Shown in pieces: positions 8,410 through 32,386 of a stretch of 55,033 nucleotides of DNA (the first letter of the stretch is position 1; the number at the start of each line of letters is the position of its first letter). A program made the position numbers and the translations under genes. The notes below the pieces were generated by a model. It ran no database searches, had not been told where the DNA came from, and was given only the letters and a program-made list of their open reading frames with translations. Origin of the DNA: an uncultured Actinomycetota bacterium (lineage in GTDB: Bacteria > Actinomycetota > Nitriliruptoria > Euzebyales > Egibacteraceae); assembly GCA_964629825.1 (NCBI GenBank), contig CAZVUW010000009.1, positions 1 through 55,033 on the forward strand, read 5' to 3'.

Positions 8410-8547
8410 ACCCCGGGGGGCCATGCCGCGTGGCCCCCGCGTGCTCCTGCTGACAGTCGTCGTGTTGCCGCCGCTACAGACCGCGCCGCCCTCCGGGCGC
8501 AACATCAGGTCGACAGCAGACGCCGACCAGCCACAGGAGCAATCCGA

Positions 8548-10051: not shown

Positions 10052-10060
10052 CGTCCCGGC

Positions 10061-11083: not shown

Positions 11084-11136
11084 CGTGCGCACCTTAGCCG
11101 AGGGGGCGGACGCCGCTCGGATCCTGGGCTGTCCGG

Positions 11137-14909: not shown

Positions 14910-16873
14910 GGCAGGATCCCGCGGAGCAGCTCGGCCCAGCGGGAGGCCTCGACCGCGGCGTCGAACCGGCGCGCCGTCTCCAGCCCCGCCTCCGCCAGGC
15001 GTCCGGCGAGCGCGCGATCCTCCAGCAACGTCAGGGCCGCGGCGGCCACGGCCTGCGGGTCCGTCGGCTCGGCGGTGAGGCAGTTCACGCCGTCCTCGGC
15101 GTACTCCGCGATTCCGCCGTGGGGGGTGAGCACCGCGGGGGTGCCGCAGGCCATCGCCTCGAGCCCCGGGCGGCCGAAGCCCTGCCAGGTCGAGGCGTCC
15201 ACCAGCACCGCGGCCGAGCTCAGCAGCTCCGCCACCTCCTCCTGCTGAAGGCGTCCGCGGTGGTCGTGCTCGAGCCCCTCGATGGGCGGAAAGCGGTGCC
15301 CGAAGAACGTCGGCAGAGCGTCGGGCCGCGCGGCCGTCACCAGTCGCAGCGCCGCGACCGTGCCGTCGAAGTTGCGGTGGGCCACCCCTGGCCGGGCGGC
15401 CGAGACGACCAGCGGGCGCGCCGGCGCCACCACCGCGCGCGGCCGGAAGACGTCGAGATCCAGGCCGAGGGGGATGCGGTGGACCTCTCCTCCGGCGGCG
15501 GCCTCGACCCGCTCGGCCAGCCAGCGGCTCTTGACCACCTTGTGCTCGATGGCGGACAGCGCGGCGGCCGCTGCGGCCTGCTCCTCGCTGCCGTCCTCCA
15601 GCTGGGCGAGCTCGTCGTCCTGGACGAAGGCCAGCGGCGTCGCGCGCCAGCGCTCCGCGAGCTCCAGCGCAAGCGGCCAGGTGTCCCAGCGGGTCCCGAC
15701 CACCACCCCCGCCGGCGGCAGGCCCTCGAGCAGCGCCGCGGTGGACCCGAAGGTCCGCAGAGGAGCGATCGAGAGCTCGTCCAGCGCCCAGCTGTCGGCG
15801 GGCGCATCGGCTGCGACGGCCGCCTGGAAGCCCGACAGGCACAGGCGATCCGCGATCTGCAGGACGGACAGGACCCCGCCGTAGGCGCCGAGCCCCGGCA
15901 GCAGGAACAGCGCCGACGCCACCCCCGGCCGAGGGGGCCTGCTCGGTGCCTCCGTGCGGCCCTGACGCCAGCGGGGCGGCTGCTCGGCGGTCGTTGTCGG
16001 TGCGGGGCGGCGCTGTCCCGAGCGGGTCCGCAGCAGCCGGGCGGCGGCCCTGCTGACCGGCGCCCTTCGCCGCAGCGGCCCGGCTCCGAGCAGGCGGTCC
16101 AGCGGCTCCCCCAGCCGCGCCAGCGCACCGCCCTCGTCGGGCGTGCGCGGCGGCGCCGGGGTGGCGTCGACGCTCCAGCGCAGGCTGCGAGCGACCTCGA
16201 ACGGCAGGTCGACGACGTCGCGCTCCAGCGCCTCGAGCGACTCGGTGGCGCGCTGCCAGGACCGCTGCAGCGGACGCGGAACGTGCACCCAGGTCGAGTC
16301 GTCGAGCACCGTCGGAACACGTCCGGCGGCCAGGCTCAGCTCGGGCCAGCCCGCGCTCTCCCAGCCGCCCGCTGCGGCGGCCAGAGCCTCCAGCGCCTCG
16401 ACCGTCCCGGCCACCACGGGCGAGTCCAGGCGCGTCAGCGGTGGCCGCAGGCGCTCGGCGCGACGCCGCACCAGGGCCGCGAGCTGCTCGGGCTCCCAGC
16501 CGTCGGGCAGCTCCAGGTGCAGCCGGCGGGAGGCGTCGCTGAGCGGCTGGGCCAACCCGGCGTCGGCGGCCTCGAGCAGGCTCTCGAACGCCTCGGCCGC
16601 CGGCGCGGCAGGCACGGCCAGCAGCAGCGCGGCCGAGCACTCCAGCGCCGACAGCCCGCGCGCCAGCGCGGCGCCGACGGGACCGTCCGGCGCGGGCAGC
16701 ACCTGCGCCTCGAGCTCGAGCTCGTACAGAACTCGGGCGGCCACTGCGGCGTCGGCCGGCGGCACCAGCACCGCCAGGTCGACGTCCTCGGCGCGCGGCC
16801 AGCGAGCGAGGCCGAAGCGCAGCAGCCGGAGGGAGCGCCCCGCCAGAACCACCGCTCCGATCCGGCCGACCAC
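14906..16873 (-). CDS. Glycosyltransferase family 4/1-like protein with ~330-aa N-terminal domain of unknown function
   Basis: GTG 16873 lies 6 nt after GGAGGGA. The C-terminal GT-B motifs are FFGHRFP..., LVDASTWQGFGRPGLEAMACGTPAVLTPHGGIAEY. I do not recognise the N-terminal half. Confidence 0.65.
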   Translation of the reverse strand: MVGRIGAVVLAGRSLRLLRFGLARWPRAEDVDLAVLVPPADAAVAARVLYELELEAQVLPAPDGPVGAALARGLSALECSAALLLAVPAAPAAEAFESLLEAADAGLAQPLSDASRRLHLELPDGWEPEQLAALVRRRAERLRPPLTRLDSPVVAGTVEALEALAAAAGGWESAGWPELSLAAGRVPTVLDDSTWVHVPRPLQRSWQRATESLEALERDVVDLPFEVARSLRWSVDATPAPPRTPDEGGALARLGEPLDRLLGAGPLRRRAPVSRAAARLLRTRSGQRRPAPTTTAEQPPRWRQGRTEAPSRPPRPGVASALFLLPGLGAYGGVLSVLQIADRLCLSGFQAAVAADAPADSWALDELSIAPLRTFGSTAALLEGLPPAGVVVGTRWDTWPLALELAERWRATPLAFVQDDELAQLEDGSEEQAAAAAALSAIEHKVVKSRWLAERVEAAAGGEVHRIPLGLDLDVFRPRAVVAPARPLVVSAARPGVAHRNFDGTVAALRLVTAARPDALPTFFGHRFPPIEGLEHDHRGRLQQEEVAELLSSAAVLVDASTWQGFGRPGLEAMACGTPAVLTPHGGIAEYAEDGVNCLTAEPTDPQAVAAAALTLLEDRALAGRLAEAGLETARRFDAAVEASRWAELLRGILP

Positions 16874-16934
16874 GTGTCCCTCCTCGCCCTCCCGCCGCAG
16901 GGGGGCTCCATATGCCTCGGGTAGCCTATTGCGG

Positions 16935-17900
16935 GTGCTGACCCCCACCGCCTCAGTCGCGACCGTGGTGCTCCACCACCGGCATCCGCAGGACACGATC
17001 CGCTGCGTCCGCTCGATCCGGCGCAGCACCTATCGCAACCAGCGCCTCATCGTCGTCCACAACGAGGCCGAACCGGCGGAGGCGACCCAGCTGCGCTCCG
17101 CGCTCGGCCCGGTCACGGTGATCGAGAGCGCCGAGAACCTCGGGTACGCCGGCGGCAACAACCTCGGCATCCGTTACGCGCTGGACCTGGGGGTCGACTT
17201 CGTCTGGCTGCTGAACCCGGACACCATAGTGGAGCCGGGCACGCTGGAGCGGCTGGTCGAGACCGCCGCGGAGCACCCCGAGGCGGGGCTGCTGGGCGGC
17301 CTGGCGCGCTACCACGGCCGCAGGCCACCGACCGTGTGGTGCAACGGCGGCGCCGTCGACTGGAGCCGCGGCGGGGCGACCTGGCACATCGACGACGGCC
17401 GTCCGGTTCGCAGCGCTCGGACGGACGGCCCCTTCCCCGCCGACTACGTGAGCGGCGCCTGCATGCTCGTGCGGCGAGAGGTTTTCGGCGACATCGGCCT
17501 GCTGCCGGAGCACTACTTCCTGTACTTCGAGGAGACCCACTTCGCGGCCAGCGCACGCGCGGCCGGGTGGGAGGTCCTCCAGGAGCCGCGGGCCCAGCTC
17601 GACCACGACAAGCGCTCGACCGGCCGCCTCCCGGCGCCCTACTACGTCTACTACTTCGTGAGGAACCGCTTGAGCTTCGCCCGCGACGTCGGCGGCGTCG
17701 AGCCGGCCGTGATCGAGGACGACCTTCAGGGCTGGATCTCGGCCTGGCGCAAGAAGGTCTCCGAGCGCGAGCCCGCCTGGCTGCCCGTCTACGAGCGGCT
17801 GGTCGCGGCCGCCCTCGCCGACGGGCGCGCGGGGGTGACCGGGCGGCGCGACGACCTCGACGCCCTGGTCGCCGGGGAGGTGCAGGTCAGCGGTGCCTGA
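16935..17900 (+). CDS. Glycosyltransferase family 2 (rhamnosyltransferase-like)
   Basis: Motifs seen: ATVVLHHRHPQDTIRCVRSI, IVVHNEAEP, ENLGYAGGNNLGIRYAL, LLNPDT and YFLYFEETHF. The start is set at GTG 16935 with no SD, so it may be leaderless. Confidence 0.75.
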   Translation: MLTPTASVATVVLHHRHPQDTIRCVRSIRRSTYRNQRLIVVHNEAEPAEATQLRSALGPVTVIESAENLGYAGGNNLGIRYALDLGVDFVWLLNPDTIVEPGTLERLVETAAEHPEAGLLGGLARYHGRRPPTVWCNGGAVDWSRGGATWHIDDGRPVRSARTDGPFPADYVSGACMLVRREVFGDIGLLPEHYFLYFEETHFAASARAAGWEVLQEPRAQLDHDKRSTGRLPAPYYVYYFVRNRLSFARDVGGVEPAVIEDDLQGWISAWRKKVSEREPAWLPVYERLVAAALADGRAGVTGRRDDLDALVAGEVQVSGA

Positions 17901-20313
17901 GCCAGCCCCCCACGAGGAGGCAGGGCTCGCCGAGGTCCCACCCGAGGAGCTTCGGGCCGAGCTGGAAGCCACCATCACCGGCCTGCAGGCGCAGCTCGAC
18001 CGCACGCGCCGCGAGCGCGACGCCCTGAAGCGGGAGCTCGACGAGGCCAACCGCCGCCTCGACGCGGTCTACGCGACCAAGACCTGGCGCCTGGGCAGGG
18101 CGCTGATGTACCCCGGCTACCGGCTCAAGCAGGAGCTGCAGCGCAGCGAGCGGGCGCGCGCGCTGATCCGGCGCCTGCGCGGCCAGGCGAGCCCGACCGG
18201 GTCGCCGCGGAACGCGGACCGGCCCCCGCCGGACATCGCTGTCACACCTCGCACCCGGCAGGAGGCCGCCTACAAGGCCGCGCTCCAGCGGGACCGCTTC
18301 AGCCCCGGCGCCGGCCGGATCGTCATGGCCGTGTCCTCGCGGCACCTCGAGGAGGGTCGTGGCGACCTGTACACCGCCATCGGCCTGGGCCTGCGCCTGG
18401 AAGAGCTGGGCTACGAGGTCATGTACCGCGAGCCGGACGACTGGTACGACCTGCCCGAGCACACCGACCTCGTGATGGCGCTGGTCGCCGAGCGCACCGC
18501 CACCTTCGACCCGGCGCTGCTGCCCCGGCCGGTGCGCACCATCGCCTGGGTCCGCAACCAGACCAGGCGCTGGACCGAGCTGCCGACCTTCGCGCTGTTC
18601 GACGCGGTGGCGTGCTCCTCCACGCCGTCGCTGCGCGCCGTCCGACGCGTCCACCCCGGTCCGCACCTGCTGCTGCCCATCGGCGTGGACGAGGAGCTGT
18701 TCGCCCCCGCCGGCGAGGAGCGCTCCGCGACCCTGGCGACCACGGTGAACTCCTGGAGCCGGGAGCGCGCGCTGCACCGAACCCTGGTCGAGGCGCGGCT
18801 CGACGCCCCCCTGGCGATGTTCGGGCGCGACGACGGGCTGCCCGAGGCGCTGCGCCGCTCCGCCCTCGGCCCCGTCAGCTTCTTCGCCCTGCCGTCGGTG
18901 TACTCGAGCGTCGCGCTGGTGCTGGACGACGTCCAGGACGTCAACCGCACCTACGGCAACCTCAACTCGCGCATCTACGAGTCGCTGGCCTGCGGGGCGC
19001 TGCCGATCACCAACAGCGCCTCCGGCCTGGCCGAGGCAGGCCTTGAGGGCGTCCCGGTCGCCGCGGGCGCGGCGGAGCTGCGCGAGGTGGTCGAGCGCAT
19101 GCTGGCCGACCCCTCGGCCCGCGCCGCCGAGGTCGAGTCGCTGCGCCGCGTGGTGCTGGACCGCCACACCTACCGGCACCGTGCCCGGACGCTGGACGCC
19201 TTCCTGCGCGAGCAGCTGGCGAGCGCCGAGCGGCCCGCCACGGTCGCGTTCGCGCCCGACTACCGGGTGACCAACCCCTTCCAGTCGCTGCTGGCGGCGC
19301 GGCTCCCCGAGCACGGCGTGCGGGCGGTGCCGACGGACAGCCCGATGGCGCTGGTCCGGTCGGGCGCCGTGGACCCCAGCCGGCTTGTGTACCACCGCCA
19401 CTGGACGGCGACGATCCTCGGCCCGGCGACCTCCCGCCGCGACGCCCAGCGCCGCTGCGGGGCCTACCTGGCCGAGCTGGACGAGCTGAAGGCCGCCGGA
19501 GGCCGGATCGTCTGGACGGTCCACAACATCCTGCCGCACGAGTGCGCCTACCCGGACGTCGAGAAGGCGCTGCGCCAGGGGCTGGCCGACCGCGCCGACG
19601 TCCTGCACGTGATGTGCCCGGACACGCCCGAGCTGCTCCGCGACGTCGCCGTGCTGCCGCCGGAGCGGGTGCGCGTCCTGCCGCACGGCAGCTACGTGGA
19701 CGTCTACCCGAACATCGTCGACCCGCGTCAGGCGCGGCTGGAGCTGGGGCTCGACCTCGACGACCTGGTGCTGCTGAGCCTGGGCGGCATCCGCCCCTAC
19801 CGCGGCATCGACGTGCTGCTCGACGCCTTCTCCGAGGCGCTGCGCGACGAGCCGCGCCTGCGGCTGGTCGTCGCCGGCCGGCCCGGCCGGCACCCGTCCG
19901 TGCCCGAGCTGGAGCGCCGCTGCCGCGAGCATCCGCGCATCGTCGGGCACTTCGAGGAGGTGCCGGACGAGGATCTGCAGCTCTACTTCAACGCCGCCGA
20001 CGTCGCGGTGTTCTCCCACCGCGCGGTGCTGAACTCGGGTGGGGTGCTGCTCGCCTGGTCCTTCGGCCGCCCCGTCATCGCCCCGGCCGCGGGCTGCCTG
20101 ACCAGCCAGGTCACCGAGGACGGGGGCATCCTCTACCCCCCGGACCGGCCGGATGGACTGGCCGACGCACTGCGCCGTGCGGGGACGCTGGCCACTCCGG
20201 CGGCGCGGCAGGCAGCCTTCGAGCGCGCGGCCTCCCACACGCACCTGGATATGGCGGACGGCTACGCCGACATCGTCAGCGAGCTGCTCCAGTCGGCTCG
20301 AACCCTCTCCTGA
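17893..20313 (+). CDS. Two-module GT-B glycosyltransferase with N-terminal coiled coil
   Basis: The coiled coil is LRAELEATITGLQAQLDRTRRERDALKRELDEANRRL, followed by TWRLGRAL. The first module is CgeB/GT1-like (NLNSRIYESLACGALPITN). The second is GT4-like (LLSLGGIRPYRGIDVLLDAF, RLVVAGRPG, NSGGVLLAWSFGRPVIAPAAG). Confidence 0.65.
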   Translation: MPEPAPHEEAGLAEVPPEELRAELEATITGLQAQLDRTRRERDALKRELDEANRRLDAVYATKTWRLGRALMYPGYRLKQELQRSERARALIRRLRGQASPTGSPRNADRPPPDIAVTPRTRQEAAYKAALQRDRFSPGAGRIVMAVSSRHLEEGRGDLYTAIGLGLRLEELGYEVMYREPDDWYDLPEHTDLVMALVAERTATFDPALLPRPVRTIAWVRNQTRRWTELPTFALFDAVACSSTPSLRAVRRVHPGPHLLLPIGVDEELFAPAGEERSATLATTVNSWSRERALHRTLVEARLDAPLAMFGRDDGLPEALRRSALGPVSFFALPSVYSSVALVLDDVQDVNRTYGNLNSRIYESLACGALPITNSASGLAEAGLEGVPVAAGAAELREVVERMLADPSARAAEVESLRRVVLDRHTYRHRARTLDAFLREQLASAERPATVAFAPDYRVTNPFQSLLAARLPEHGVRAVPTDSPMALVRSGAVDPSRLVYHRHWTATILGPATSRRDAQRRCGAYLAELDELKAAGGRIVWTVHNILPHECAYPDVEKALRQGLADRADVLHVMCPDTPELLRDVAVLPPERVRVLPHGSYVDVYPNIVDPRQARLELGLDLDDLVLLSLGGIRPYRGIDVLLDAFSEALRDEPRLRLVVAGRPGRHPSVPELERRCREHPRIVGHFEEVPDEDLQLYFNAADVAVFSHRAVLNSGGVLLAWSFGRPVIAPAAGCLTSQVTEDGGILYPPDRPDGLADALRRAGTLATPAARQAAFERAASHTHLDMADGYADIVSELLQSARTLS

Positions 20314-22297
20314 AGCTGATGTAGTCAGCCGAAAGGTCCTGCGACCTGTCCACGGCGTTCGCAGCGGCCCGCAGCTGAGGAAGCATCTCCGGCAAGCGCT
20401 CCAGCGCCTCTGCCAGAGCAGACGCCGACCCAGGCGGCACATAGAGCGCCGCATCGCCGAACAGGTCGCGGAGTCCTGGCAGGTCGCTCGCCACGGCGGG
20501 CAGCCCCCTGGAGGCCGCCAACGCCCCTGCTCCCGAATGGTCGATGGCGCGGTACGGCAAGACGGCGGCGTCGGCCAGGTCCAGGCAATCGAGCAGCTCG
20601 CCATGCTCCAGGTAGCCCTCGATCAGGCGCACCCGCTCGGCCGCCCCGGCCTCGGCGGCCGCACCCACCACGTCCCAGCCGTGGCTCTGTCCCGCCAGCA
20701 CGACGTGAACAGGGCTGGCGGCGGGCAGCCGCCCGAGGGCCTGCAGGAGCACGTCGATGCCCTTGTACCCGCGGAGGTTGCCGATCGCCACGAGCACGAG
20801 GTCGTCCGGGCCCAGCCTGAGGGAGTGGCGGGTGTGCCTGCCGGCGGGCCTAACCCTGTCCCCGGCCGGCGGGGGGAACGGCAGCCGCGTCGTGGGCAGG
20901 CCGTGACCGCGCGCCCACTCCTGCATAGCCGCGGTGTGTACGACGACGTGGTCGCAGGCCCGCGCAGCGGCGACCACCCCAGGCTCTCGGTGGGGGTGCT
21001 CGTGCGGGCTGCGGTTGTGCACGGTGGCGATCACCCTGCAGCCTGACTGATGGAGTGACGCCACGAGCAGCCGCTCCCAGCCCGGTCTGAACCCGAGCTG
21101 GACCCAGGCCGTGTCACCTCGAGCTGGGCGTCGTCGAGCGCGAGCCAACCCGACTGCAGCGGCGATGAGCCGATCAAGGGGTGCGGGCCCCCTGCGCGGA
21201 AACCAGCGCTCCAGCTGCTCTCCTGCCGAGGAGGATGCGCCGTCCCCGCCTGCGACGACGACCGTTCCCGCGCCGCTCAGCAGACCAGCCACGTCGCGCG
21301 CGTACTGGGCGACGCCGCCGCGTCCGAACGGCTCGATCACCCACCACGTCCCCGCGCTGACGGGTGGAGCGGCGGAGCGCGGCAGACGTGTGCGCCACGC
21401 GCCGCTCAGCCAGGCTGAGTGCTGACCGCGACGCCGAGCCGCCGTCTGATCCCCTCCAAGCGCCTGCAGGGCACGGATGGCCCACCGGGCCAGCTGCCCC
21501 AGGCTGAGGAGCACCAGCGCAGCGCGCCCTCGGGACTGCCCCAGATGCTTGAGGAGGAACCGCCGCGTCGAGCGCCCCATGTGCGTGGCCCGACGCGGAT
21601 CATGGAGCCCGAGCGCGGTCGATCGAAGGTGCTCGATCTCGGAGCCGGGCACAAGCACCGTGCGATGCCCCAGGGCTCGGGCGCGCAGCTGCCAGTCGAT
21701 CTCCTCCCAGTAGAGGAAGTACCCCTCGTCAAATGGACCGACCTCCCTCCAGACAGCCCTTGGGACCAGGAGGCACACGCCGCTGAGCAGGGGCGCATCG
21801 ACCTCGCTCTCGTAGCTCTGCCAGCGGCTCCAGAGCCGCTGCGGCCAACCCCCCGGAGCTGCACGCTCCGGGATGAGCACCTCCTCGCCGAGGAGCGAGC
21901 CGAAGGTGGGAAGCGATCTGCGGGTCGGCAGCAGGCGACCATCCCCGTCGCGTACCGCCGGTCCGAGCACGGCACCCGGGTGGCGCTTAGATGCAGCTCG
22001 CAGCGCCCCGAGCGCCCCCGGCCGCAGACGAACATCGGGGTTGACGATCAGCAGCAGGTGACCGGTCGCGGCAGCCAGCCCCGCGTTGACGCCTGCTGCG
22101 AACCCGCGATTCTCGGGCAGGCTGACCACGCGGACTGTGGGGAGGGTCGCGCGGGCCACATCGGCGCTGTCGTCAGGCGAGGCGTTGTCGACGACGACCA
22201 CCTCGTCGACGCCCTGCTGATCGAGCGCCCGCAGAAGGTCCGGCAGATGGTCGGCAGAGCGGAACGCGACCACGACCGCTGTGATGGTCGGGTTCAT
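20276..22297 (-). CDS. Bifunctional GT2 + GT4 glycosyltransferase
   Basis: The N-terminal GT2 motifs are TAVVVAFRSADHL, VVVVDNASPDDS, ENRGFAAGVNAG, IVNPDV and YFLYWEEIDW. The C-terminal GT4 motifs are LVAIGNLRGYKGIDVLLQAL and HSGAGALAASRGLPAVASD. The 3' end overlaps the convergent gene by 38 nt. Confidence 0.7.
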   Translation of the reverse strand: MNPTITAVVVAFRSADHLPDLLRALDQQGVDEVVVVDNASPDDSADVARATLPTVRVVSLPENRGFAAGVNAGLAAATGHLLLIVNPDVRLRPGALGALRAASKRHPGAVLGPAVRDGDGRLLPTRRSLPTFGSLLGEEVLIPERAAPGGWPQRLWSRWQSYESEVDAPLLSGVCLLVPRAVWREVGPFDEGYFLYWEEIDWQLRARALGHRTVLVPGSEIEHLRSTALGLHDPRRATHMGRSTRRFLLKHLGQSRGRAALVLLSLGQLARWAIRALQALGGDQTAARRRGQHSAWLSGAWRTRLPRSAAPPVSAGTWWVIEPFGRGGVAQYARDVAGLLSGAGTVVVAGGDGASSSAGEQLERWFPRRGPAPLDRLIAAAVGLARARRRPARGDTAWVQLGFRPGWERLLVASLHQSGCRVIATVHNRSPHEHPHREPGVVAAARACDHVVVHTAAMQEWARGHGLPTTRLPFPPPAGDRVRPAGRHTRHSLRLGPDDLVLVAIGNLRGYKGIDVLLQALGRLPAASPVHVVLAGQSHGWDVVGAAAEAGAAERVRLIEGYLEHGELLDCLDLADAAVLPYRAIDHSGAGALAASRGLPAVASDLPGLRDLFGDAALYVPPGSASALAEALERLPEMLPQLRAAANAVDRSQDLSADYISFRRGFEPTGAAR

Positions 22298-22519: not shown

Positions 22520-23374
22520 GTGACCGCGGCGGAGCACGGCGCTCCGCCGGGTCGGCAGGGGGAGCTCTTCCAGCTGGGCGTGAAGCCGTCCTTGAGGAAC
22601 TATCTCCGCCAGATCTGGTCACGCCGGGATTTCACGATCACCGTGCCCCTGGGTGACCTGCGAGCCCAGCACCGCAACACCTTGCTCGGCAGCATCTGGC
22701 ACCTGTTCAACCCGCTGCTGCTGGGCGCCGTGTACTTCCTCATCTTCGGCGTGATCTTCAACCAGGCCGGGGCGATCGAGAACTACGTCACGTTCCTGCT
22801 CATCGGCCTGTTCATCTTCCAGTTCACGTCGAAGGCCATGAGCACCGGTGCGCGAACGGTCATCTCGAACATGGCTCTCATCCAGAGCCTGACGTTCCCC
22901 AGGGCGGTCCTGCCGATCTCGGCGGTCATCGGGGAGACCCTTGCGTTCCTCCCGTCCGTCGCCGTCATGGCGATCGCCGCGGTCGTGACGGGCGAGCCCG
23001 TCAGCATCACATGGCTGCTCGTCCTGCCCGCCCTAGGGCTCCAGGCCCTGTTCAACCTCGGCATAACGTTCTTCACAGCGCGGATGACGTTCCACTTCCG
23101 CGACACGCTTGAGATCCTGCCCTACATCACCCGCTTGTGGATGTACCTGTCCGGCGTCTTCTACACCGTGGACCGCATTCCCGAGGGCCCGCTGCGGACA
23201 GCCTTTGAGCTGAACCCGCTCCATGCCTACATCTCGATGATCCGCAGCCTCTTCATGGACGCCGCGATCCCGGAACGGCATTGGGCCATCGGGGCGGCGT
23301 GGGCGCTCGGTCTCGCGCTGGCCGGGTTCCTGTTCTTCCGAGCACGTGAAAGCGACTATGGGCGCGGCTACTGA
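22520..23374 (+). CDS. wzm: Polysaccharide/O-antigen/teichoic-acid type ABC-2 exporter permease (Wzm/TagG family)
   Basis: LRNYLRQIWSRRDFTITVPLGDLRAQHRNTLLGSIWHLFNPLL is the characteristic N-terminal region. It has six TM segments and sits directly upstream of the Wzt-type ATPase. Confidence 0.8.
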   Translation: MTAAEHGAPPGRQGELFQLGVKPSLRNYLRQIWSRRDFTITVPLGDLRAQHRNTLLGSIWHLFNPLLLGAVYFLIFGVIFNQAGAIENYVTFLLIGLFIFQFTSKAMSTGARTVISNMALIQSLTFPRAVLPISAVIGETLAFLPSVAVMAIAAVVTGEPVSITWLLVLPALGLQALFNLGITFFTARMTFHFRDTLEILPYITRLWMYLSGVFYTVDRIPEGPLRTAFELNPLHAYISMIRSLFMDAAIPERHWAIGAAWALGLALAGFLFFRARESDYGRGY

Positions 23375-25013
23375 TCACTCCGTGAACGGCGAGCAGACGC
23401 AACCGCCCGTGTCCGAGCCGGTGGCCGTGTCGGAGAACGACGACGCCTTCGACGGGCACGCGCCTTCTGTGGTGATCGACGACGTCCACCTCACCTACCG
23501 GGTCTACGAGGACGTCAAGCCGACGCTGCGCAAGCTCGTCGCCCGAGGGTTCAAGCCGCGTCCCTACCGCGCTATCGAGGCGGTCCGCGGCGTCAGCCTC
23601 ACCGCCTATCCCGGCGATGCCGTCGCAATCGTGGGGGCGAACGGGTCGGGCAAGAGCACGCTGCTGAAGGTCGTCGCCGGGCTGATCCCGCCGACCAAGG
23701 GGGCCGTGTACGCGGGCTCTGTGCCCGTCCTTCTCGGCGTGAACGCCGCGCTTCAGCCCGAGCTCTCGGGCCGCCGCAACATCATCCTCGGCGGTACCGC
23801 TCTGGGGCTGTCGCGCAAAGAGGTGGACCAGCGCATCGATGAGATCATCGAGTTCTCCGAGCTGGGCGACTTCATCGACATGCCGCTGCGGGCGTACTCC
23901 TCTGGCATGAGAGCACGACTGCAGTTCTCCATCGCCACCGCCGTGCATCCGGACGTCCTGCTCATCGACGAGTCGCTGGCGGTGGGCGACGCAGCATTCC
24001 GTCGCAAGTGCGAGATCCGCATCCAAGAGATGCTGGGCGCGGCGGGCACCGTGTTCCTGGTCAGCCACAGCCTCGGAATCGTCAGGGAGCTGTGCTCTCG
24101 GACCGTGTGGATGGACCACGGGGCCGTCTTGGCGGACGGCCCGACGGAGGAGGTGCTCCCCCGCTACGAGGAAGCCATGGGTGTCCCAGCGGAGCGGATC
24201 CGCAAGCCGGGCGCCGCCCCTGCAAAGCGGGAGGAGCCGAAGCCTGCGGCCGAGGGGACGGTGGAGCAGCCCCCTCCGCTGCCCCTGCTCGGCGATCCGG
24301 ACGAGCTGCTGTACGTCGCCACGCCACCACGCGGGGGTGCCGTCCCACTGGCGCGTGCGCTGAACCGCGATCCTGACCTGGCGGTGTTCCGTCTGCCGGG
24401 GCTGGCCAACGACCGCTTCGAGGTTCGCGCCGATGACAAGGAGCGCTGGGACGGCCGCAACGTGGACCTCGTCGGCTTCGCCCGTGAGCACGCAGGTCCC
24501 CGTCTTCTCGCTCGATTCCGCGAGGAGCTGCAGCCCGAGCTGCTGCGCCACGTCCGCCAGGTTGGGGTCGCTGAGAACACCCATGACGGCTGGCGCCGCT
24601 ATCTGCGTCAGTTCCCCAAGCTGCGGGCCGTGATCGTGGCGCGAGATCCCCGAGACGTGTACCTGGAGCTGACCCGCGCGGTTGCCGAGGACCCCCGGTT
24701 GTGGGTGGGGCCTCTCACGGTTCAGTCCTTCGCAAACCGCGCCGTACCGCAGTACCAGCACCTTCAGGAGATCGAGGAGTCGGTTCCGACGCTGCGGGTC
24801 TCCTACGACGAGCTCCTCACCGCGCCGGGCGAGGTCGTTCGCGCGGTGCGTGAGCTGGTGGGCATGCCAGGGCCGGCCCCGGACGGGATCCAGATCGCCG
24901 CCGAAGCTCAGCGCTCATGGCGAGAGGAGACGGACGCGCAGCTCCGTGACGAGCTCGAGATGATCGGGCGCCTGTTCGCTGGAGTCATCGAGGACTGGGG
25001 CTTCGACCAGTGA
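23346..25013 (+). CDS. wzt: Polysaccharide ABC exporter ATP-binding protein (Wzt/TagH family) with ~240-aa C-terminal sulfotransferase-fold-like domain
   Basis: Walker A is GANGSGKST, the signature is YSSGMRARL and Walker B is VLLIDESLAVGD. The C-terminal domain (from ~24297) carries YVATPPRGGAVPL, IVARDPRDVYLE and LRVSYDELLTAPGEVVRAVRELVGMP. The start is uncertain (GTG 23346, ATG 23358 or GTG 23382). Confidence 0.85.
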   Translation: MKATMGAATDHSVNGEQTQPPVSEPVAVSENDDAFDGHAPSVVIDDVHLTYRVYEDVKPTLRKLVARGFKPRPYRAIEAVRGVSLTAYPGDAVAIVGANGSGKSTLLKVVAGLIPPTKGAVYAGSVPVLLGVNAALQPELSGRRNIILGGTALGLSRKEVDQRIDEIIEFSELGDFIDMPLRAYSSGMRARLQFSIATAVHPDVLLIDESLAVGDAAFRRKCEIRIQEMLGAAGTVFLVSHSLGIVRELCSRTVWMDHGAVLADGPTEEVLPRYEEAMGVPAERIRKPGAAPAKREEPKPAAEGTVEQPPPLPLLGDPDELLYVATPPRGGAVPLARALNRDPDLAVFRLPGLANDRFEVRADDKERWDGRNVDLVGFAREHAGPRLLARFREELQPELLRHVRQVGVAENTHDGWRRYLRQFPKLRAVIVARDPRDVYLELTRAVAEDPRLWVGPLTVQSFANRAVPQYQHLQEIEESVPTLRVSYDELLTAPGEVVRAVRELVGMPGPAPDGIQIAAEAQRSWREETDAQLRDELEMIGRLFAGVIEDWGFDQ

Positions 25014-28000
25014 GCGACCACAACGACCTGGTCGAGCATCTCCGCCGGCTCGAGACGGCGCTGGTCGCAAACGAGCGGAGGCGGTTGGAGCTCGAAGGAC
25101 AGCTCCGCGCCACCGACTCCGAGCGAGTCGAGGCGCAGGAGCGTGTGCATGCGCTGCAGGGTGAAGTCGAGGAGCTGACCGACCTGTTGCGCAAGCTGCG
25201 GCGCGAGGTCTCGTCGCTCCTTGAGTCCAATCGCTGGCGGCTCGGAAGCCGCATCGGCGACACCATCGAGCGCGTTGCTCGCAAGCCGGGTAGAGAGAAG
25301 GCGACCGAGCGCATCGACCGTCTTTTCGAGCGCTTCGACCGCCTGGGTGAGGCCAAGGTCTCCACGCCGTCGCCTGAGGTGTCTCAGAGCGAGGACGACC
25401 ATCGTTGGGGGTTGTCTGCCGAGGCCGACATGGCCCACCGGCTGAGCCTCTACCAGCGCTACGTAGCGGAGATCGAGGAGCCGCCCGCGAAGGTTGAGGA
25501 CCCGCCGACGGTCCGAGCGGTCGTGCTTGCGAAGTGGGGAGATGTCGACTCTCCGGGGACGCTCCCCGGAGTCATGCGGTCCGTACGTTCGGCAATGGCC
25601 GCCGGTGCTGGAGCGACGGTGATCGTTCCCGCTGCGGCTTCTGCGCTCCGCCGCGGCCTGCCGTCTGGGATGGACCTGGTAATCCAAGAGCCCTCGACTC
25701 TTCTGGGCGAGGTGCTTGCGCGGACGGCGAAGGGGTGGGACGAGGACTTCACCGTCTTCCTGGCGCCGGGCGACACGCTTTCCGGCGACCTGCGCGATGG
25801 TGTCGCGCCAGCGCTGGTCGATGCCTCCCCTGCCGCGATCGTGGTCGATGACGATCGGATGCACGCCGATGGCCGCCGAGACGATCCCCGGCTGAAGCCG
25901 GGATTTCAGCCCGACCTGCTTCTCGAGCACGACTACATCGGCAACGGCGCCCTGGTTTCGACCGATGTCCTGCGGGGTCTGACTGAACCGCTCGAGGAGA
26001 GCCGCGACCTCGTGCGGGGGATTCTCCTGAGCCTCCATGAGCATGGCCGCACGATCGCCAAGGTGGATGCGGTGCTTCTCCACCGGGCCGCCGCGGCCGA
26101 TGACTGCCGGGCGGCACCCGCCGACCAGCTCCGCTTCGTAGAGCAGAGGCTGGATCGTCGCGGCCTGACGCAACGTGCGGACATCAAGGTCAGGCCGACC
26201 GGCGTCCGAGTCCGCTTCCGCGTGCCGGACGAGCCGCTGGTGTCGATCATCATCCCGTTCCGTGACCGGGTCGACCTGCTGCGCGATTGCCTGGACAGCA
26301 TCCGACGGCTGACGACCTACCCGCGCTACGAGCTGGTGCTCGTCGACAACGGCAGCACAGAGCCGGAGACGGCCGAGTACCTCCGCGGTCTGGCCGGTGA
26401 CGAGCGGATCCGGGTTCTGCGCGACGACGGCCCCTTCAACTACTCGCGAATCAACAACGAGGCCGCAGCGCAGGCGCGCGGTCGCTTCCTGGTGTTCCTC
26501 AACAACGACACCCGGGTGCTGTCTCCGGAGTGGCTCGAGGACCTCACCGGCCTGGCTGACCTCGACGGCGTCGGCACGGTCGGGGCGCATCTGCACTTCG
26601 GGGACGGGCGCATTCAGCACGCGGGCGTCGTCATCGGTGTCCAGGGGTTCGCGACGCACCTCTTCGCGGGCGCGCACGCACCCTTCCTCCCGGCGGAGAT
26701 GATCGAGCACACCCGCAACTGCTCGGCGGTGACAGGCGCGTGCATGGCTGTGCGCGCCGACCGCTTCCGCGACGTCGGCGGCTTCGACGAGGAGTTCATC
26801 GTCACCGGGAGCGACGTGGAGCTGGGACTGCGCTTCCTCCGCAACGGCTACCGCAACGTCGTCACGCCCCGGGTGCGGTTATTCCACTACGAGAAGCAGT
26901 CGCGCGCAGGCATCGCTGTCAACCCGATCGACGTCCGCCGCTCCCTGCGCCTCTACCAGCCCTACCTGCGCGAGGGCGACCCGTTCTGGAACCGTGCCCT
27001 CTCCCGGCGCTCGCCGCTCATGCTGCCCCGGACGGGTCCGGAGCCTAGCTACCTCGACTTCCTCGAAGAGGTGAACGACCGGCTGGAGACCACGGCGCGC
27101 ACGGCAGGAGACCGAGCGATTGCCAAGTACCTGGCCCGTTGGGATGCCTCAGCTCGGGACCTGGCCGGGAACGCCGCCGTCCTTGCGGCCGCGCCGGGCC
27201 GGCGACCGATAGCGCTGCGATCGGCGACGTGGTTCGTCCCCACCTTCGACAACGCCTACCGCGGCGGGATTCACACCATCCTGCGGGTCGCCGACTTCTT
27301 CAGCCGCGAGCATGGGACTCTGAACCGCATCGTCTTGTACGACCGCTATGCGATCGACCTCGACCGGATCGAAGGGCTGATCCGGCAGGCGTTCCCCACG
27401 CTGCGGATGGAGCTGCACACCCTGGCCCCCGGGGATGACGAGGCAAGTCTTCCGTCCAGCGACGTGGGCATCTGCACCCTGTGGAACTCGGCGTATCACC
27501 TGCTCCGCTACAACCAGTGCGGGGCGAAGTTCTACTTCGTCCAGGACTACGAGCCCGTGTTCCACAGCGGCAACGCGCTGGCCGGGCTCGTCGAGCAGAC
27601 CTACCGCTTCGGCTTCCCCGGAATCGCCAACACCGAGGGGGTCGCCGAGGCCTACCGCGCCTACGGCAACGAGGCGCTCGCCTTCACACCGGGCGTGGAC
27701 CGCAACCTCTACCACCCTGCCGAGCGCTCCCGGAGCGGCAGCCCCGTCCGCATCGTGTTCTACGGGCGCCCGCGCAACGCGCGCAACGGCTTCGAGCTGG
27801 GCGCGCAGGCACTCCGGCAGATCAAGCAGCGCTACGGCAACGCGGTAGAGATCGTCTCGGCCGGAGGGGTCTTCAACCCGTCCGAGCACGGGCTCGACGG
27901 GGTGCTTGACAACCTCGGCGTGCTTCCGAACAGCGCAGAGGTTGCCGAGCTGTACCGCGGCTGCGACATCGGCCTGGTGTTCATGTACTCGAAGCACCCC

Positions 28001-28268: not shown

Positions 28269-29096
28269 ATGGCCGTTCCGAACGTGGACGTCATCATCCC
28301 GGTCTACAACTCCCTGCACGTCGTGCGACCGTGTGTCGAGAGCGTCCTCCGCGGCAGCAGCGACTACCGGCTGCTGCTGGTCGACGACGGTTCGGACCGT
28401 CACACGGCCGCCCAGCTCGCGGAGTGGGCGACGGCCTCGCCGCAGGTAGAGCTGCTCACGAACCCCCGCAACCTCGGGTTCGTGCGCACCTGCAACCGCG
28501 CCTTCGCCTCAACCGAAGGCGAGATCGTGGTCGTGCTCAACAGCGACACGGCGGTTCCGCCGGGTTGGCTCGACAAGGTCAGGGCCTGCTTCGCCAGCGA
28601 TCCCCGAATCGGTGTCGCCAGCCCGGTGAGCAACTTCGCACCGCACATGCGTGTGGATCCGCTCCCAGGCAGCGACTACCTCCAGATGGCCGCCGTGATT
28701 GAGTCGCTCGGCCCGGCGACATACCCCGACATCACCACGCCCGAGGGCTTCTGCTTCGCCATCAGTCGACGCTGCCTTGACCTTCTCGAGGGCTTCGATG
28801 AGGTGTTCGACGATGGCTACGGGGAGGAGTCGGACTTCTCGATGCGCGCCAACTACCACGGGTTCCGCACAGTCCTGATCGATGATCTGTACGTCTTCCA
28901 CCGCGGTAGGGCGACCTTCGGAGTCGAGCTGCGAGACCGTCTCTACAACCGGAACAAGAAGGTCTTCCATGATCGATGGGGCCAGCGCTACCCGCAGGAC
29001 TTCCAGGCCTTCATGACACGTGACCCCCTGGCGCGAGTGCGGGAGGGCCTGAACGGCCTCCGGAGCCCCGAGCTGGAGCCGGTCTACCGCCGATGA
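28269..29096 (+). CDS. Glycosyltransferase family 2
   Basis: Motifs seen: VDVIIPVYNSLHVVRPCVESV, LLLVDDGSD, NPRNLGFVRTCN, VLNSDT and GEESDFSMRA. Confidence 0.8.
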   Translation: MAVPNVDVIIPVYNSLHVVRPCVESVLRGSSDYRLLLVDDGSDRHTAAQLAEWATASPQVELLTNPRNLGFVRTCNRAFASTEGEIVVVLNSDTAVPPGWLDKVRACFASDPRIGVASPVSNFAPHMRVDPLPGSDYLQMAAVIESLGPATYPDITTPEGFCFAISRRCLDLLEGFDEVFDDGYGEESDFSMRANYHGFRTVLIDDLYVFHRGRATFGVELRDRLYNRNKKVFHDRWGQRYPQDFQAFMTRDPLARVREGLNGLRSPELEPVYRR

Positions 29097-30202
29097 GCAT
29101 CTCCGCGCCACGCCTGCTGCCAGCGTCCGATCCCGCCATCGTCTGGCGGGCGCCTGAACATCTCAGGATCTGCTGCGTCCTGCCCACGATGAACCCGTAC
29201 GGCGGCGTCATCTCGGTGGTCAACATCGCCGAGCAGTGGCTCGAGCTGGGCCATCAGGTGACGATCGTGTGCCTGTCGCGCGGTCTCCCCGATCTGCTCT
29301 CGTCGCGCATCGAGCCGCTGCACATCCGCGACTGGTCGCGCATCCCTGAGCTGGTCGAGGGCGACTTCGACGTTCTCCTGGCAACCTCATGGGAGACCGT
29401 CGCTCCGGTCACGGAGATGGCCAGGCGGCGCCCCGGCAGCGTGCCGTTCTACTTCGTGCAGGACATCGAGAGCCGCCTCATCCCCGCGTCCGAGCCAGAG
29501 CGGCAGCGTGCGGCAGATGCCACCTATGCGGCCATCGAACACCGCGTGGTCAAGACCGCATACCTTCAGCGCGAGCTGGCCGCGCTGGGGTACGCCGCCG
29601 AGCGGATCACGCCAGGGATGAACCTCGACATGTTCTATCCGCGCGATGTTGCGCCCTCGGCACCGCGGATCCTGGCGATGGCCAGACCCGATGCGCCGCA
29701 GGATCACCGCGGCTACTCGGTGCTGGTAGACGTCTGCGCACGCCTCGCGTCGCGACGCCCTGAGGTGGAGCTGGCGCTCTTCGGCGCACGCGAGCTGCCG
29801 CCCCTGCCGTTCCCGCACACGAACCTCGGACTGGTGCCCCCCGCGAAGCTGCCGGAGCTGTACTCCGCAGCGACCGTCTACCTGGACGTCAGCCGCCAGC
29901 ACGGCTTTGGGCGCACCGGCGTGGAGGCGATGGCCTGCGGGACGCCCTGCGTCCTCTCGGACAGCGGTGGGATCTCGGACTACGCCATGGACGGCGAGAA
30001 CGCCCTGGTCGTGCCCGTCGCCGATGTAGATGCGACGGTGGCTGCGGTCGAGCGGCTGCTCGACGATCCGACGCTCGCCGAGCGGCTGCGCGAACGCGGT
30101 CTCGCCACCGTCCGCTCCTTCACCGACCGCGCCGCCGCCGAGGAGCTGCTGACGCTGTTCGAAGAGGCGCTCCACGCGCAGCGCTCCAGCGCCCAGGCCT
30201 GA
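29093..30202 (+). CDS. Glycosyltransferase family 4 (GT-B)
   Basis: ATGA overlap with the upstream GT2. Motifs seen: ICCVLPTMNPYGGVISV and HGFGRTGVEAMACGTPCVLSDSGGISDY. Confidence 0.8.
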   Translation: MSISAPRLLPASDPAIVWRAPEHLRICCVLPTMNPYGGVISVVNIAEQWLELGHQVTIVCLSRGLPDLLSSRIEPLHIRDWSRIPELVEGDFDVLLATSWETVAPVTEMARRRPGSVPFYFVQDIESRLIPASEPERQRAADATYAAIEHRVVKTAYLQRELAALGYAAERITPGMNLDMFYPRDVAPSAPRILAMARPDAPQDHRGYSVLVDVCARLASRRPEVELALFGARELPPLPFPHTNLGLVPPAKLPELYSAATVYLDVSRQHGFGRTGVEAMACGTPCVLSDSGGISDYAMDGENALVVPVADVDATVAAVERLLDDPTLAERLRERGLATVRSFTDRAAAEELLTLFEEALHAQRSSAQA

Positions 30203-30219: not shown

Positions 30220-32292
30220 TCAGGCGCCAGACGGCTTCGCGGCGGCCTCGCGCGCTGCCTGGAGCGCCATGATGTTGGTCCACTCCTCCGACGTGCGCAT
30301 CGCCTTGAACAGGTTGGCGTCGGTGTCGCGGAGGTCGTACGTGGCGCGCTGGTGAAAGTGGTACAGCTTCGACTCCGCGGTGTAGATGATCCGCAGGCCG
30401 GCATGGGACCGCACCGCATCGCAGTAGACGCGGTCGGAGCGATAATGCGGCGCGTTGACGTGATCGAGCGGGCCGCAGAGATCGAGCGCCTTACGTGTCA
30501 CAAGCACGCAGAAGAAGGGCGCGTAGGTCAGCTCAACCCAGCCGCGAGCGACGTCAAAGTTCGGATCGATAACGTTGCGGTGGTGCGCGCTGAGATTGCT
30601 GTCGCACTCCCGGGTCGGATCAGATCCGGGCACGTGCGTCCTGATGGTGGATGTGTCGGGTGGCAGCACCTGGCGCGGCGCCACGATCCCTACGTCATCG
30701 CGCTCCACCGTGACGCGTTGCAGCCCCTCCAGCCAGCCAGGCGTGGCGAGGGCGTCGTTGTTCATGATCACGATGTCATGCTCGGGATGGGCCAGCGCGA
30801 TGCCCTGGTTGACCGCATAGGTGAAGCCGTAGTTGACGTCGTTGCGAACCACCGTGACGCCGTCCTGCCCGTCGAGCTCGTCCAGATGCTCCTGGACCTC
30901 CTCACCGGAGGCGTTGTCGACGATCACGAGGTGCGTGCCCGGAGGTGAGAAGCGCCGAATCGAGGCGGTGCAGGCGCGTAGGAACGGCGCCGCCTCATAG
31001 CTGGGTATGACGATGGTCACCCCAGGGGCGCCGTTCACAGGCTCAGGCTGTCCGGCGTTGCAGAAGGCGATGTCAAGCAGGTCTGCCACATCGGAGCTGG
31101 CGGGGACGTCCGACAGCAGCGGCCCCAGCTCCCTGCCCTCGCGCAAGCGACGCCGGATCAGCTCGAGGTGGACGGCGCGACTCTCCCCGCGCGAGACGTT
31201 GGACGCCGATTCCGACTGGTCATACGTCGACAGGATCACCGGGACGGCGATCGGCGGGGAGGCCGCGCTGAGGCGGAGGAAGAACTCCCAGTCGACGTAG
31301 CGACGCATCCCTTCGTCCAGCAGCCCGACCTCGTCGAGGAGAGAGCGACGATGCAGCACCGAGATCATGGAGATGAAGTTGTTGTTCTCCAGAAGTCCGC
31401 GGTGAAAAGGTGCGAAGCGGATGATGTTCTGACGCTCGCTCTCACCCTCGGCGAGTGGTCTCAGCACCAGCTGCGCGGAGTATCCGAACGAAGCCCCCGC
31501 CCGCTTGAGCTCGCCGAGCAGGATGCGAACGAAGTGCTCGTCCCAGACGTCGTCGCTGTCCAGGTAGCCGACCCAGGCGCCGCGCGCGGCGCGAAGGCCG
31601 GTGTTGCGTGCGTGGGCGTTGCCGCCGTTCTCCCGGCGACGGATATAGGTGACACGCGGGTCATCGATGGCCTTCACCACGGCCTCGGTCCCGTCGAGGC
31701 TCGCGTCGTCGACGACGATGACCTCGATGTTCTCGTACGACTGCGCCAGAGCGGAACGCACAGCCTGCTCGATCACGCCTGCGCGCTCGAAGGTCGGGAT
31801 GATGATCGAGACGAGCTCGTCCTGGGGGAGATCCCTGTGCTCCTGCGCGAGCCGATCCTTGAGGTAGGCCATGTAGGCGAGGATGCGACGATCCTCCTCG
31901 CTGAAGGGTGAGCGGATCAGGTTGGGATCCGTCGTCGCCAGGGCGAGGTACTCCTCGAAGGTCCGGAAGCGGGGCTCCTTGGCCGCCTTGGGCTTAGCGC
32001 GCTTCTTTGGGGTAGGCGCTGGCGGCGAGGGGGTTCCGCTTCCCGAGCCGAGCAGCGGCAGCTGGGCCAGCGGATCATCGGCCGACACGTCCTGCACCCA
32101 GTGCCACTCGAACCCATAGCGGCGGAACAGCCCCGCGTCGGGGACCTCCACACGCCAGCCGCCCACGCACTGGTAGACCCGGCGTCCGCCGTCGATGCGG
32201 ATCAGCACCACCCCGGGAGGCGGCTCCGACGGCTTGGGCTGCTCGGGGGCGGGGGCGGCACCCGACCACCGGGGTCCACGCAGGGAGGGCAT
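30220..32292 (-). CDS. Tandem double GT2 glycosyltransferase with ~110-aa unique N-terminal region
   Basis: ATG 32292 follows AAGGAG. Module 1 carries VSIIIPTFERAGVIEQAV, VIVVDDASLDGT, NGGNAHARNTGL and LDSDD. Module 2 carries VTIVIPSYEAAPFLRAC, LVIVDNASGEE, NYGFTYAVNQG and MNNDA. I trimmed the 812-aa track ORF. Confidence 0.8.
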   Translation of the reverse strand: MPSLRGPRWSGAAPAPEQPKPSEPPPGVVLIRIDGGRRVYQCVGGWRVEVPDAGLFRRYGFEWHWVQDVSADDPLAQLPLLGSGSGTPSPPAPTPKKRAKPKAAKEPRFRTFEEYLALATTDPNLIRSPFSEEDRRILAYMAYLKDRLAQEHRDLPQDELVSIIIPTFERAGVIEQAVRSALAQSYENIEVIVVDDASLDGTEAVVKAIDDPRVTYIRRRENGGNAHARNTGLRAARGAWVGYLDSDDVWDEHFVRILLGELKRAGASFGYSAQLVLRPLAEGESERQNIIRFAPFHRGLLENNNFISMISVLHRRSLLDEVGLLDEGMRRYVDWEFFLRLSAASPPIAVPVILSTYDQSESASNVSRGESRAVHLELIRRRLREGRELGPLLSDVPASSDVADLLDIAFCNAGQPEPVNGAPGVTIVIPSYEAAPFLRACTASIRRFSPPGTHLVIVDNASGEEVQEHLDELDGQDGVTVVRNDVNYGFTYAVNQGIALAHPEHDIVIMNNDALATPGWLEGLQRVTVERDDVGIVAPRQVLPPDTSTIRTHVPGSDPTRECDSNLSAHHRNVIDPNFDVARGWVELTYAPFFCVLVTRKALDLCGPLDHVNAPHYRSDRVYCDAVRSHAGLRIIYTAESKLYHFHQRATYDLRDTDANLFKAMRTSEEWTNIMALQAAREAAAKPSGA

Positions 32293-32386
32293 GTCCAGCT
32301 GAGCTCCTTGGGCCGCGGGACGGCAGGTGGGGGTTCTCGGGCAGCCGGTCGTCAGCGCCGCGCGGTCGCGTCCCGTCGTGGAGGAT

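Follow-up and report, generated by a model that had tools for sequence, protein, structure and literature searches.

A Wzt-type ABC transporter ATPase with a predicted pseudo-sulfotransferase domain in an actinobacterial glycan cluster

We analyzed a 55,033-nucleotide stretch of DNA (here, the window) from an uncultured Actinomycetota bacterium (GTDB lineage Bacteria; Actinomycetota; Nitriliruptoria; Euzebyales; Egibacteraceae; GenBank assembly GCA_964629825.1, contig CAZVUW010000009.1, positions 1 to 55,033 of the forward strand), which contains a wzt-type gene within a glycan cluster. Based on its sequence, this gene encodes an apparently functional ATP-binding cassette (ABC) ATPase of the Wzt/TagH type. 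Its C-terminal domain is homologous to stand-alone 3'-phosphoadenosine-5'-phosphosulfate (PAPS) sulfotransferases and is predicted, from sequence and model, to share their fold and not that of a jelly-roll carbohydrate-binding module (CBM). The residues that such enzymes use for cofactor binding and catalysis are replaced or deleted, and we consider this domain a pseudo-sulfotransferase, which most likely supports neither productive PAPS binding nor sulfate transfer.

The sulfotransferase-like extension of the Wzt protein

Gene callers start the gene at an ATG (position 23358), giving 551 residues, and an alternative GTG at position 23346 would give 555; Wzt residues are numbered here from the GTG. 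The nucleotide-binding domain (NBD) holds the intact motif set, with Walker A GANGSGKST (residues 97 to 105), signature YSSGM (184 to 188), Walker B LLIDE (205 to 209) and H-loop VSHS (239 to 242), and the gene lies beside an ABC-2 permease gene inside the glycan cluster, as in Wzt/TagH-type exporters. The best NCBIfam models for the NBD were TagH (E 9e-60) and galactan Wzt (E 6e-58), neither of which reached its equivalog cutoff. The NBD is followed by a linker to which no sulfotransferase-family member aligns, and then by the 238-residue extension (residues 318 to 555). In all three parts, codon-position G+C was as expected for a coding region. The gene is translationally coupled on both sides, since it overlaps the 3' end of the Wzm gene and its stop codon overlaps the GTG of the next glycosyltransferase gene. 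The exact 551-residue product was found on 10 independently assembled contigs and a one-residue variant on 5 more; therefore, the sequence is no assembly artifact. In the variant P0257, the sole amino acid difference from the window protein lies in the linker.

Several searches with the extension returned little. In the Pfam scan, residues 318 to 555 matched Sulfotransfer_3 below threshold (22 bits, E 2e-4; cutoff, 27), and no match to the Wzt_C carbohydrate-binding module was seen at an E value of 0.1 or lower. The NCBIfam search gave nothing for the domain, a single-sequence search of the PDB gave only a chance antibody match, and no close relative of the domain turned up in a genome scan. 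Homology became evident with other methods. By phmmer, the domain matched P0001, a stand-alone 272-residue Sulfotransfer_3 protein, with an E value of 9e-25 over 99% of the domain. When 1.84 billion representatives were searched exhaustively with a profile, 358 relatives were obtained, nearly all of those listed being stand-alone proteins of 240 to 320 residues or fragments of such, and a second search yielded 787; among the matches listed for the latter, nearly all had PF13469 and/or PF00685, and none had an ABC domain. When the family profile was compared with the PDB, it matched tyrosylprotein sulfotransferase 1 (TPST1) at an E value of 3e-11 as well as the sulfotransferase domains of CurM and olefin synthase. 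The setting of one further locus would fit a family that acts on polysaccharides: in ENA ERZ25039530 contig_14548 (positions 4267 to 11357; locus L075), two stand-alone family members stand in tandem, clustered with four more sulfotransferase genes, family 4 glycosyltransferase (GT4) genes, a methyltransferase gene and an epimerase gene.

The fold was then predicted with AlphaFold2. A model built on a 100-sequence alignment reached a pLDDT of 96 and a pTM of 0.92, a confidence largely inherited from the active homologues in the alignment; on a 2-sequence alignment the pLDDT was 49 and the model unusable. The confident model is an alpha/beta structure with 5 strands and about 12 helices, including the expected N-terminal strand-loop-helix. 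In a Foldseek comparison with the PDB, the top 32 of the 50 matches listed were PAPS sulfotransferases or the homologous retinol dehydratase (among them 3rnl, TPST1/2, the CurM sulfotransferase, 3-O-sulfotransferases and Stf0), with TMq values of 0.46 to 0.64. A guanylate-kinase or P-loop kinase fold was considered and rejected, as it first appeared at rank 33 with lower TM-scores.

Three alignments of the domain were made, to 86 full-length members of the family, to its 13 closest members and to 99 members (alignment A3), and family positions were related to those of TPSTs using HMMER. In the 5'-phosphosulfate strand-loop-helix, the family loop reads R-[TS]-G-S-T, its Arg aligning with that of the TPST PRSGTT loop, whereas the window reads R-G-G-A-V. 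R329 and G331 are kept; position 330, a Thr or Ser in 78 of the 86 full-length members, is Gly, and the loop Ser and Thr (each conserved in 89% of the 99 homologues) are replaced by Ala332 and Val333. The Glu of the family F-R-E-P motif, which aligns with the catalytic Glu of TPSTs ('cgEEtR'), is replaced by Leu350, and the Lys of G-V-K-E, which aligns with the catalytic Lys ('cnKD'), by Ala409. In the 3'-phosphate motif, where the family RDPRDxYxS aligns with TPST RDGRASVHS, the window keeps R433-D-P-R-D and has Glu441 in place of the Ser. Moreover, a conserved family loop carrying a His present in 93% of members is deleted, and the model is least confident at the deletion site. Residue 524, an Arg in 73 of the 86 members, is Ser. 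The corresponding Arg78, Glu99 and Lys158 of human TPST2 take part in catalysis, and replacing them with Ala substantially lowers activity (PMC10951654).

These replacements set the domain apart from its family. It mismatches 15 of the 34 columns conserved at 85% or more, whereas the other 99 members have a median of 1 mismatch. The next worst, with 10 to 12 mismatches, belong to a distant subfamily that was added to the alignment; there the Glu (99 of 99 homologues) persists, as do the Lys and Ser in nearly every case. Apparently structural residues are kept (G407, E410, W416, R433-D-P-R-D437, Y439, Y487, W525, W551 and G552). The domain forms a long branch, with 33% identity to the nearest subfamily compared with 47% among the members of that subfamily. 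None of the features of an active enzyme (5'-loop, catalytic Glu and Lys, and 3'-phosphate Ser) is intact, and the parsimonious reading is that the domain derives from an active enzyme and later lost both cofactor binding and catalysis.

A preliminary description of this DNA had read the extension as a sulfotransferase fold with a degenerate PAPS loop, quoting three motifs. The open reading frame (ORF) and all three motifs are present, and the absence of a Wzt_C match, the alpha/beta model and the Foldseek matches bear out the fold. The loss of cofactor and catalytic apparatus that it proposed from the loop is heavier than claimed, with Leu350, Ala409, Glu441 and a deletion of about 20 residues in addition; its reading of the 3'-phosphate motif as intact has to be corrected, the Ser being replaced.

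A possible sulfate cap and its alternatives

In all characterized systems with chain termination, the reader of the cap is fused to the C terminus of the NBD; export does not proceed without this cap-binding module. The caps described so far are methyl, phospho-methyl and Kdo, and the modules are domain-swapped dimers of jelly-roll fold (PMC9445017). The terminator sits on a coiled-coil ruler, and the succession of enzyme, coiled coil and basic amphipathic tail is characteristic (PMC11231755).

A protein with such a layout is encoded in the window. As the preliminary description had noted, a sulfotransferase gene starts 9.5 kb after the wzt stop codon; its 426-residue product is of sulfotransferase fold, keeps all family-invariant residues and has a coiled coil. 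The catalytic domain (residues 1 to ~240; motifs GMHRSGTS, NVIKDPR and LRSPAEVAAS) is followed by a coiled coil of about 150 residues (~251 to 405) and a basic amphipathic tail (401 to 426). We collected 32 homologues from metagenomes, and in an alignment of 26 sequences the protein keeps 24 of 24 invariant columns (among them G8, H10, S12-G-T-S15, E47, K105, P107, R108, R130, P132 and R142), together with the near-invariant R11, D106 and S138. Residues 251 to 410 contain no Pro and only 3 Gly, and their heptad a/d enrichment was 0.394, compared with 0.242 ± 0.036 in shuffled sequences (0 of 500 shuffles reached the observed value). The last 26 residues carry a net charge of +9 around a hydrophobic stretch. 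The family gave weak PDB matches to the olefin synthase sulfotransferase domain and TPSTs, and profile-profile comparison related it to the Wzt-domain family (probability 97%, E 4e-11) over the loop, the Lys and the Arg/Ser motifs. The sequence thus predicts the layout of a coiled-coil terminator, with an enzyme, a coiled coil and a membrane-associating helix, and this architecture would fit a role as terminator.

In active sulfotransferases, the loop Arg contacts the transferred sulfuryl group. We tentatively propose that the dead domain reads a sulfate cap written by the 426-residue sulfotransferase and thereby licenses export, a mechanism that we regard as a serious possibility while stopping short of calling it probable. 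The dead domain would take the position and role of the carbohydrate-binding module in a cap-dependent Wzt. The sulfotransferase, held at the end of its ~150-residue coiled-coil ruler and anchored by the basic amphipathic tail, would add sulfate to the non-reducing end when the lipid-linked glycan has grown to a sufficient length. The former acceptor cleft, with the retained Arg329, would bind the sulfated chain end and deliver it to the Wzm-Wzt channel, and only capped chains would be exported.

Relatives of the transporter were compared. The closest NBD relatives are 66 to 69% identical over the aligned NBD half, have 307 to 380 residues and lack a folded C-terminal domain. Two of their loci (L041 and L042), with NBDs 67 to 73% identical to that of the window by tblastn, encode Wzt proteins of 307 to 308 residues with no extra domain, and no sulfotransferase was found in their retrieved flanks. 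Both share with the window a core of family 2 glycosyltransferase (GT2), large GT4, Wzm, Wzt and GT2+GT4 genes, and one has an LCP ligase gene. With the full-length query, a second fusion was found in P0362 (659 residues; JGI metagenome 3300031965), where a Wzt NBD 54% identical to that of the window is followed by a linker and a Sulfotransfer_3 domain. At 120 bits, this domain is above the Pfam threshold, and it retains GRSGTT, SETW, GEKTP and RDPRD..S. At its locus (Ga0326597_10012424, positions 5901 to 9938; L011), Wzm and a 360-residue sulfotransferase that ends in a coiled coil and a basic tail adjoin Wzt, and the latter sulfotransferase is a paralogue of the P0362 domain (30% identity, E 3e-27). 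The P0362 and window domains belong to different subfamilies, with 24% identity over the C-terminal ~155 aligned residues. Because of this, and because closer NBD relatives lack the appendage, the two fusions look independent, and the recurrent pairing of a coiled-coil sulfotransferase with a Wzt-borne sulfotransferase fold argues for a functional link.

In the library searched, we found no paper in which Wzt is fused to a sulfotransferase or linked to a sulfate cap, the nearest literature mention being a sulfotransferase-domain ORF of unexplained role beside wzt in Aeromonas salmonicida (PMC4483657); P0362, with Wzt and an intact Sulfotransfer_3 domain, shows that the fusion is not unique. 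Such a fusion occurs together with a coiled-coil sulfotransferase in the window and in L011. Stand-alone members of the Wzt-domain family adjoined Wzm/Wzt in 0 of 29 genome loci, and homologues of the 426-residue protein in 0 of 32 metagenome loci. Co-occurrence therefore rests on the window and L011 only. No other dead-domain fusion was detected, a weak negative, as the isolated-domain query of the word-indexed protein search missed P0257, which has an identical domain and was returned by the full-length query.

Other appendages were observed on related NBDs. P0370 and P0383, both actinobacterial-type Wzt proteins, carry an unassigned C-terminal domain of ~330 residues (LHVGGSLAGNRAIQ...), which gave no signal when tested for sulfotransferase likeness. 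Among other Wzt/TagH proteins, P0381 (Janibacter) carries CWB2, P0358 an enolase-C-like region and P0366 an unassigned ~190-residue domain. The C terminus of these NBDs looks like a place where domains are readily added.

Several points weigh against a cap-reading role. The sulfated glycan, the terminal sulfate and glycan binding by the domain are inferred by analogy with WbdD and the Wzt CBM (PMC11231755, PMC9445017). The two sulfotransferase folds of the window are only distantly related, at the profile level, and nothing therefore ties their specificities together. The intact P0362 domain does not discriminate among a reader, a tethered enzyme and a scaffold. The long branch also fits relaxed constraint, and the confidence of the domain model is, as said, largely inherited. 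The dead domain occurs in one species-level lineage only, as two sequences 2 nucleotides apart; one difference is synonymous and the other lies in the linker, so close a pair that no test of purifying selection on the domain is possible. Finally, no PAPS-synthesis genes were found in the window.

Other roles for the domain were weighed as well. It might act as a scaffold, binding a protein and recruiting the coiled-coil sulfotransferase or the polymerase complex, or dimerizing and holding the NBDs together. Pseudoenzymes commonly partner active paralogues (PMC10211241, PMC3663545), and the Wzt-borne domain of L011 and its neighbor are paralogues that could pair; TPST-type sulfotransferases are dimers (PMC10951654), and the long flexible linker would suit recruitment. 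In the window, however, the two folds are related only at the profile level, which makes homotypic pairing unlikely, and known coupling between terminator and transporter goes through the glycan cap and not through protein contacts (PMC9445017). Overall, we consider a scaffold unlikely.

A further alternative is decay of a once-active fusion like P0362 that was made redundant by the separate sulfotransferase. The 15 mismatched columns, the long branch and the single known lineage are what a relic would display, and at 70% G+C an open frame persists long by chance. Nevertheless, the lesions are concentrated at cofactor and catalytic positions and not spread randomly; the secondary-structure pattern persists, as do the residues of core and fold, there are no frameshifts, coding-type codon-position G+C is maintained, and the overlap of the next gene's start with the stop codon embeds the frame in the operon. 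On this evidence, a decaying relic is improbable.

Since Arg329, Gly331 and R433-D-P-R-D437 survive, the domain could also be an allosteric sensor that binds PAP, PAPS or sulfate and tunes ATPase activity, much as cap binding to the carbohydrate-binding domain modulates ATP hydrolysis in Aquifex aeolicus WzmWzt (PMC9445017). This is very improbable, given the negative charge that Ser441Glu brings to the 3'-phosphate site, the missing loop hydroxyls and the deleted loop with its near-invariant His, which together make nucleotide binding look compromised overall. Hardly credible at all is a domain that is still an enzyme, sulfating or otherwise modifying the glycan at the transporter with migrated residues ("cap and go"): P0362 is an active-looking fusion, some predicted pseudoenzymes have relocated catalytic residues (PMC10211241) and the acidic D356 and E359 lie a few positions past Leu350, but the Glu, which none of the other 99 homologues lacks, the Lys, the Ser, both loop hydroxyls and a conserved loop are lost together, and TPST2 is substantially less active when the equivalent Arg, Glu or Lys is changed to Ala (PMC10951654).

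When glycans are assembled for ABC transporters, cap-licensed export serves as the quality-control step. Known cases cover only three cap chemistries and one reader fold, the jelly-roll CBM, all in Gram-negative bacteria; to our knowledge, sulfate has not been reported as a cap. If the dead domain does read a sulfate cap, it would bring a new cap chemistry, a second, unrelated and enzyme-derived reader fold, and a Gram-positive example, with an enzyme fold turned into the reader of its own family's product. That all of this holds at once, with sulfate as the new cap, a writer on a coiled ruler, a dead sulfotransferase in place of a CBM and wall polymers of Gram-positive bacteria as substrates, we regard as doubtful. 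Such a reader would also give protein engineers a model from nature for turning sulfotransferases into sulfoglycan-binding proteins. Whether or not it acts as a reader, the domain is a clear bacterial pseudo-sulfotransferase and, together with P0362, shows that Wzt C termini repeatedly recruit sulfotransferase folds.

The surrounding glycan cluster

The features of the wzt gene and its neighbors are given in Table 1. The window contains no fewer than eight glycosyltransferase genes. The Wzm permease is 59% and 56% identical to those of L041 and L042, respectively. The window has a G+C content of 67 to 76%, and a block at ~22 to 40 kb (0.67 to 0.70) lies 2 to 7 points below its flanks (0.72 to 0.76). 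This block holds the transporter and extra glycosyltransferase and sulfotransferase genes without counterpart in the closest relatives, and it may therefore have been acquired horizontally.

Table 1. Coordinates of the wzt gene, its parts and the neighboring features in the window
Feature	Position	Strand	Basis or remark
GT4	14906-17029	-	
GT2, 321 residues	~16935-17900	+	Inferred from L001
Double GT4	17893-20313	+	
GT2+GT4	20276-22297	-	
Wzm, ABC-2 permease, 284 residues	22520-23374	+	Pfam ABC2_membrane, E 1.4e-15
wzt-type gene (NBD, linker, pseudo-sulfotransferase domain)	23358-25013	+	551 residues from ATG
ABC NBD, residues 41-277	23466-24176	+	Pfam ABC_tran, E 9e-20
Pro/Ala/Glu-rich linker, ~40 residues, residues 281-317, PAERIRKPGAAPAKREEPKPAAEGTVEQPPPLPLLGD	24186-24296	+	Sequence
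Sulfotransferase-fold domain without catalytic set	24297-25010	+	Homology and model
Degenerate 5'-phosphosulfate strand-loop-helix, residues 323-335, YVATPPRGGAVPL	24312-24350	+	Compared with TPST PRSGTT loop
Leu350 replacing invariant Glu	24393-24395	+	Glu in 99/99 homologues
Ala409 replacing conserved Lys	24570-24572	+	Lys in 98% of 99 homologues
3'-Phosphate motif, residues 428-441, AVIVARDPRDVYLE	24627-24668	+	Ser in 99% of homologues
Third motif of the preliminary description, residues 483-508, LRVSYDELLTAPGEVVRAVRELVGMP	24792-24869	+	
Site of ~20-residue deletion in family loop GxVGxFNAxNPRRxxExxLHGxxIT	24873-24896	+	Alignments
Multi-module glycosyltransferase, GT2 + WsaF-like GT4, 1085 residues	25010-28267	+	Pfam
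GT2	28269-29096	+	
GT4	29093-30202	+	
Two GT2	30220-32658	-	
GT-D-fold protein, 739 residues, ends directly before sulfotransferase gene	32327-34546	+	Pfam GT-D-like, E 4e-35; NCBIfam GT-D_rel
Candidate cap-writing sulfotransferase, 426 residues	34547-35827	+	Start 9.5 kb after Wzt stop
Membrane protein with Pfam Sulfatase-family domain, 702 residues	35837-37945	-	
Surface protein, 3573 residues (VWA, Big_9, cadherin-like and PKD domains)	39784-50505	+	
CWB2 cell-wall-binding protein	51603-53768	-	

The preliminary description had placed the transporter in an O-antigen setting. Instead, the polymer is most likely a wall or secondary cell-wall glycopolymer of an actinobacterium, an assignment that follows from the high G+C content (70 to 75%), the TagH and galactan-Wzt matches, the LCP gene in a relative and the CWB2 protein in the window, and that is supported by the named near NBD relatives (Euzebyales, Jatrophihabitans, Janibacter and Streptomyces). 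Since the ligands of CWB2 domains are anionic secondary wall polymers, the CWB2 and surface proteins, which flank the cluster, might be anchored by the exported and possibly sulfated glycan.

Some neighboring genes showed further features. The first ~400 residues of the 1085-residue glycosyltransferase (positions 25010 to 26200) gave only a weak DUF6270 match (E 7e-4), and this module could represent another modifying or terminating activity. The 702-residue protein, whose gene is convergent with that of the 426-residue sulfotransferase, has about five membrane segments at its N terminus and, in addition, a domain of the alkaline phosphatase superfamily. It matches only the C-terminal half of the Pfam Sulfatase model and has no C/S-x-P-x-R formylglycine motif; by sequence, an extracytoplasmic transferase of the LtaS/EptA type seems a better description of it than a sulfatase. 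Weak homologues of it lie within ~1 kb of sulfotransferase homologues in three loci (L056, L057 and L058). A second, unrelated ABC-2 pair at positions 5986 to 8354 (+), a DrrA-like ATPase with a DrrA1-3_C domain and its permease, lies downstream of a two-component system (2041 to 4412). No Rfam RNA elements were found in the window.

Comparison with known systems

The closest likeness is to the cap-dependent Wzm-Wzt systems of Escherichia coli O9a, Klebsiella pneumoniae O12/Raoultella terrigena and Aquifex aeolicus, in which, as in the window, an extra domain follows the NBD and the cluster has a terminator-like coiled-coil enzyme. Their known caps are methyl, phospho-methyl and Kdo, and the host of the window is probably Gram positive. 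Their Wzt modules are domain-swapped jelly-roll beta-sandwich dimers (PMC9445017), whereas the window has an alpha/beta domain on a long flexible linker. The 426-residue protein shares its layout with the WbdD, WbbB and ORF7(O4) terminators (PMC11231755), but the heads of the WbdD type are kinases, methyltransferases or Kdo transferases, and its own head is a sulfotransferase with no sequence homology to WbdD. Cap-independent systems have neither appendage nor terminator, and the same applies to the closest relatives of the window examined, for the terminator within their retrieved flanks.

With Sulfotransfer_3 (PF13469) and TPST-like enzymes, the window domain shares the strand-loop-helix, the RDPRD strand-helix and the predicted fold; it differs from them by the lost residues and loop and by its fusion to an ABC ATPase. 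P0362 resembles the window in its NBD, linker and sulfotransferase fold, its adjacent Wzm and its neighboring coiled-coil sulfotransferase, and differs in that its domain is intact, belongs to another subfamily and is a paralogue of the neighboring sulfotransferase. The importer ATPases MalK, MetN and ModC carry C-terminal regulatory domains, with trans-inhibition by small molecules. As a general parallel, a domain behind the NBD could couple a ligand to the ATPase in the window as well, but these proteins have other folds and serve importers. Overall, the comparison suggests that the system of the window is a variant of cap-licensed ABC export, its function being one that we infer from these likenesses.

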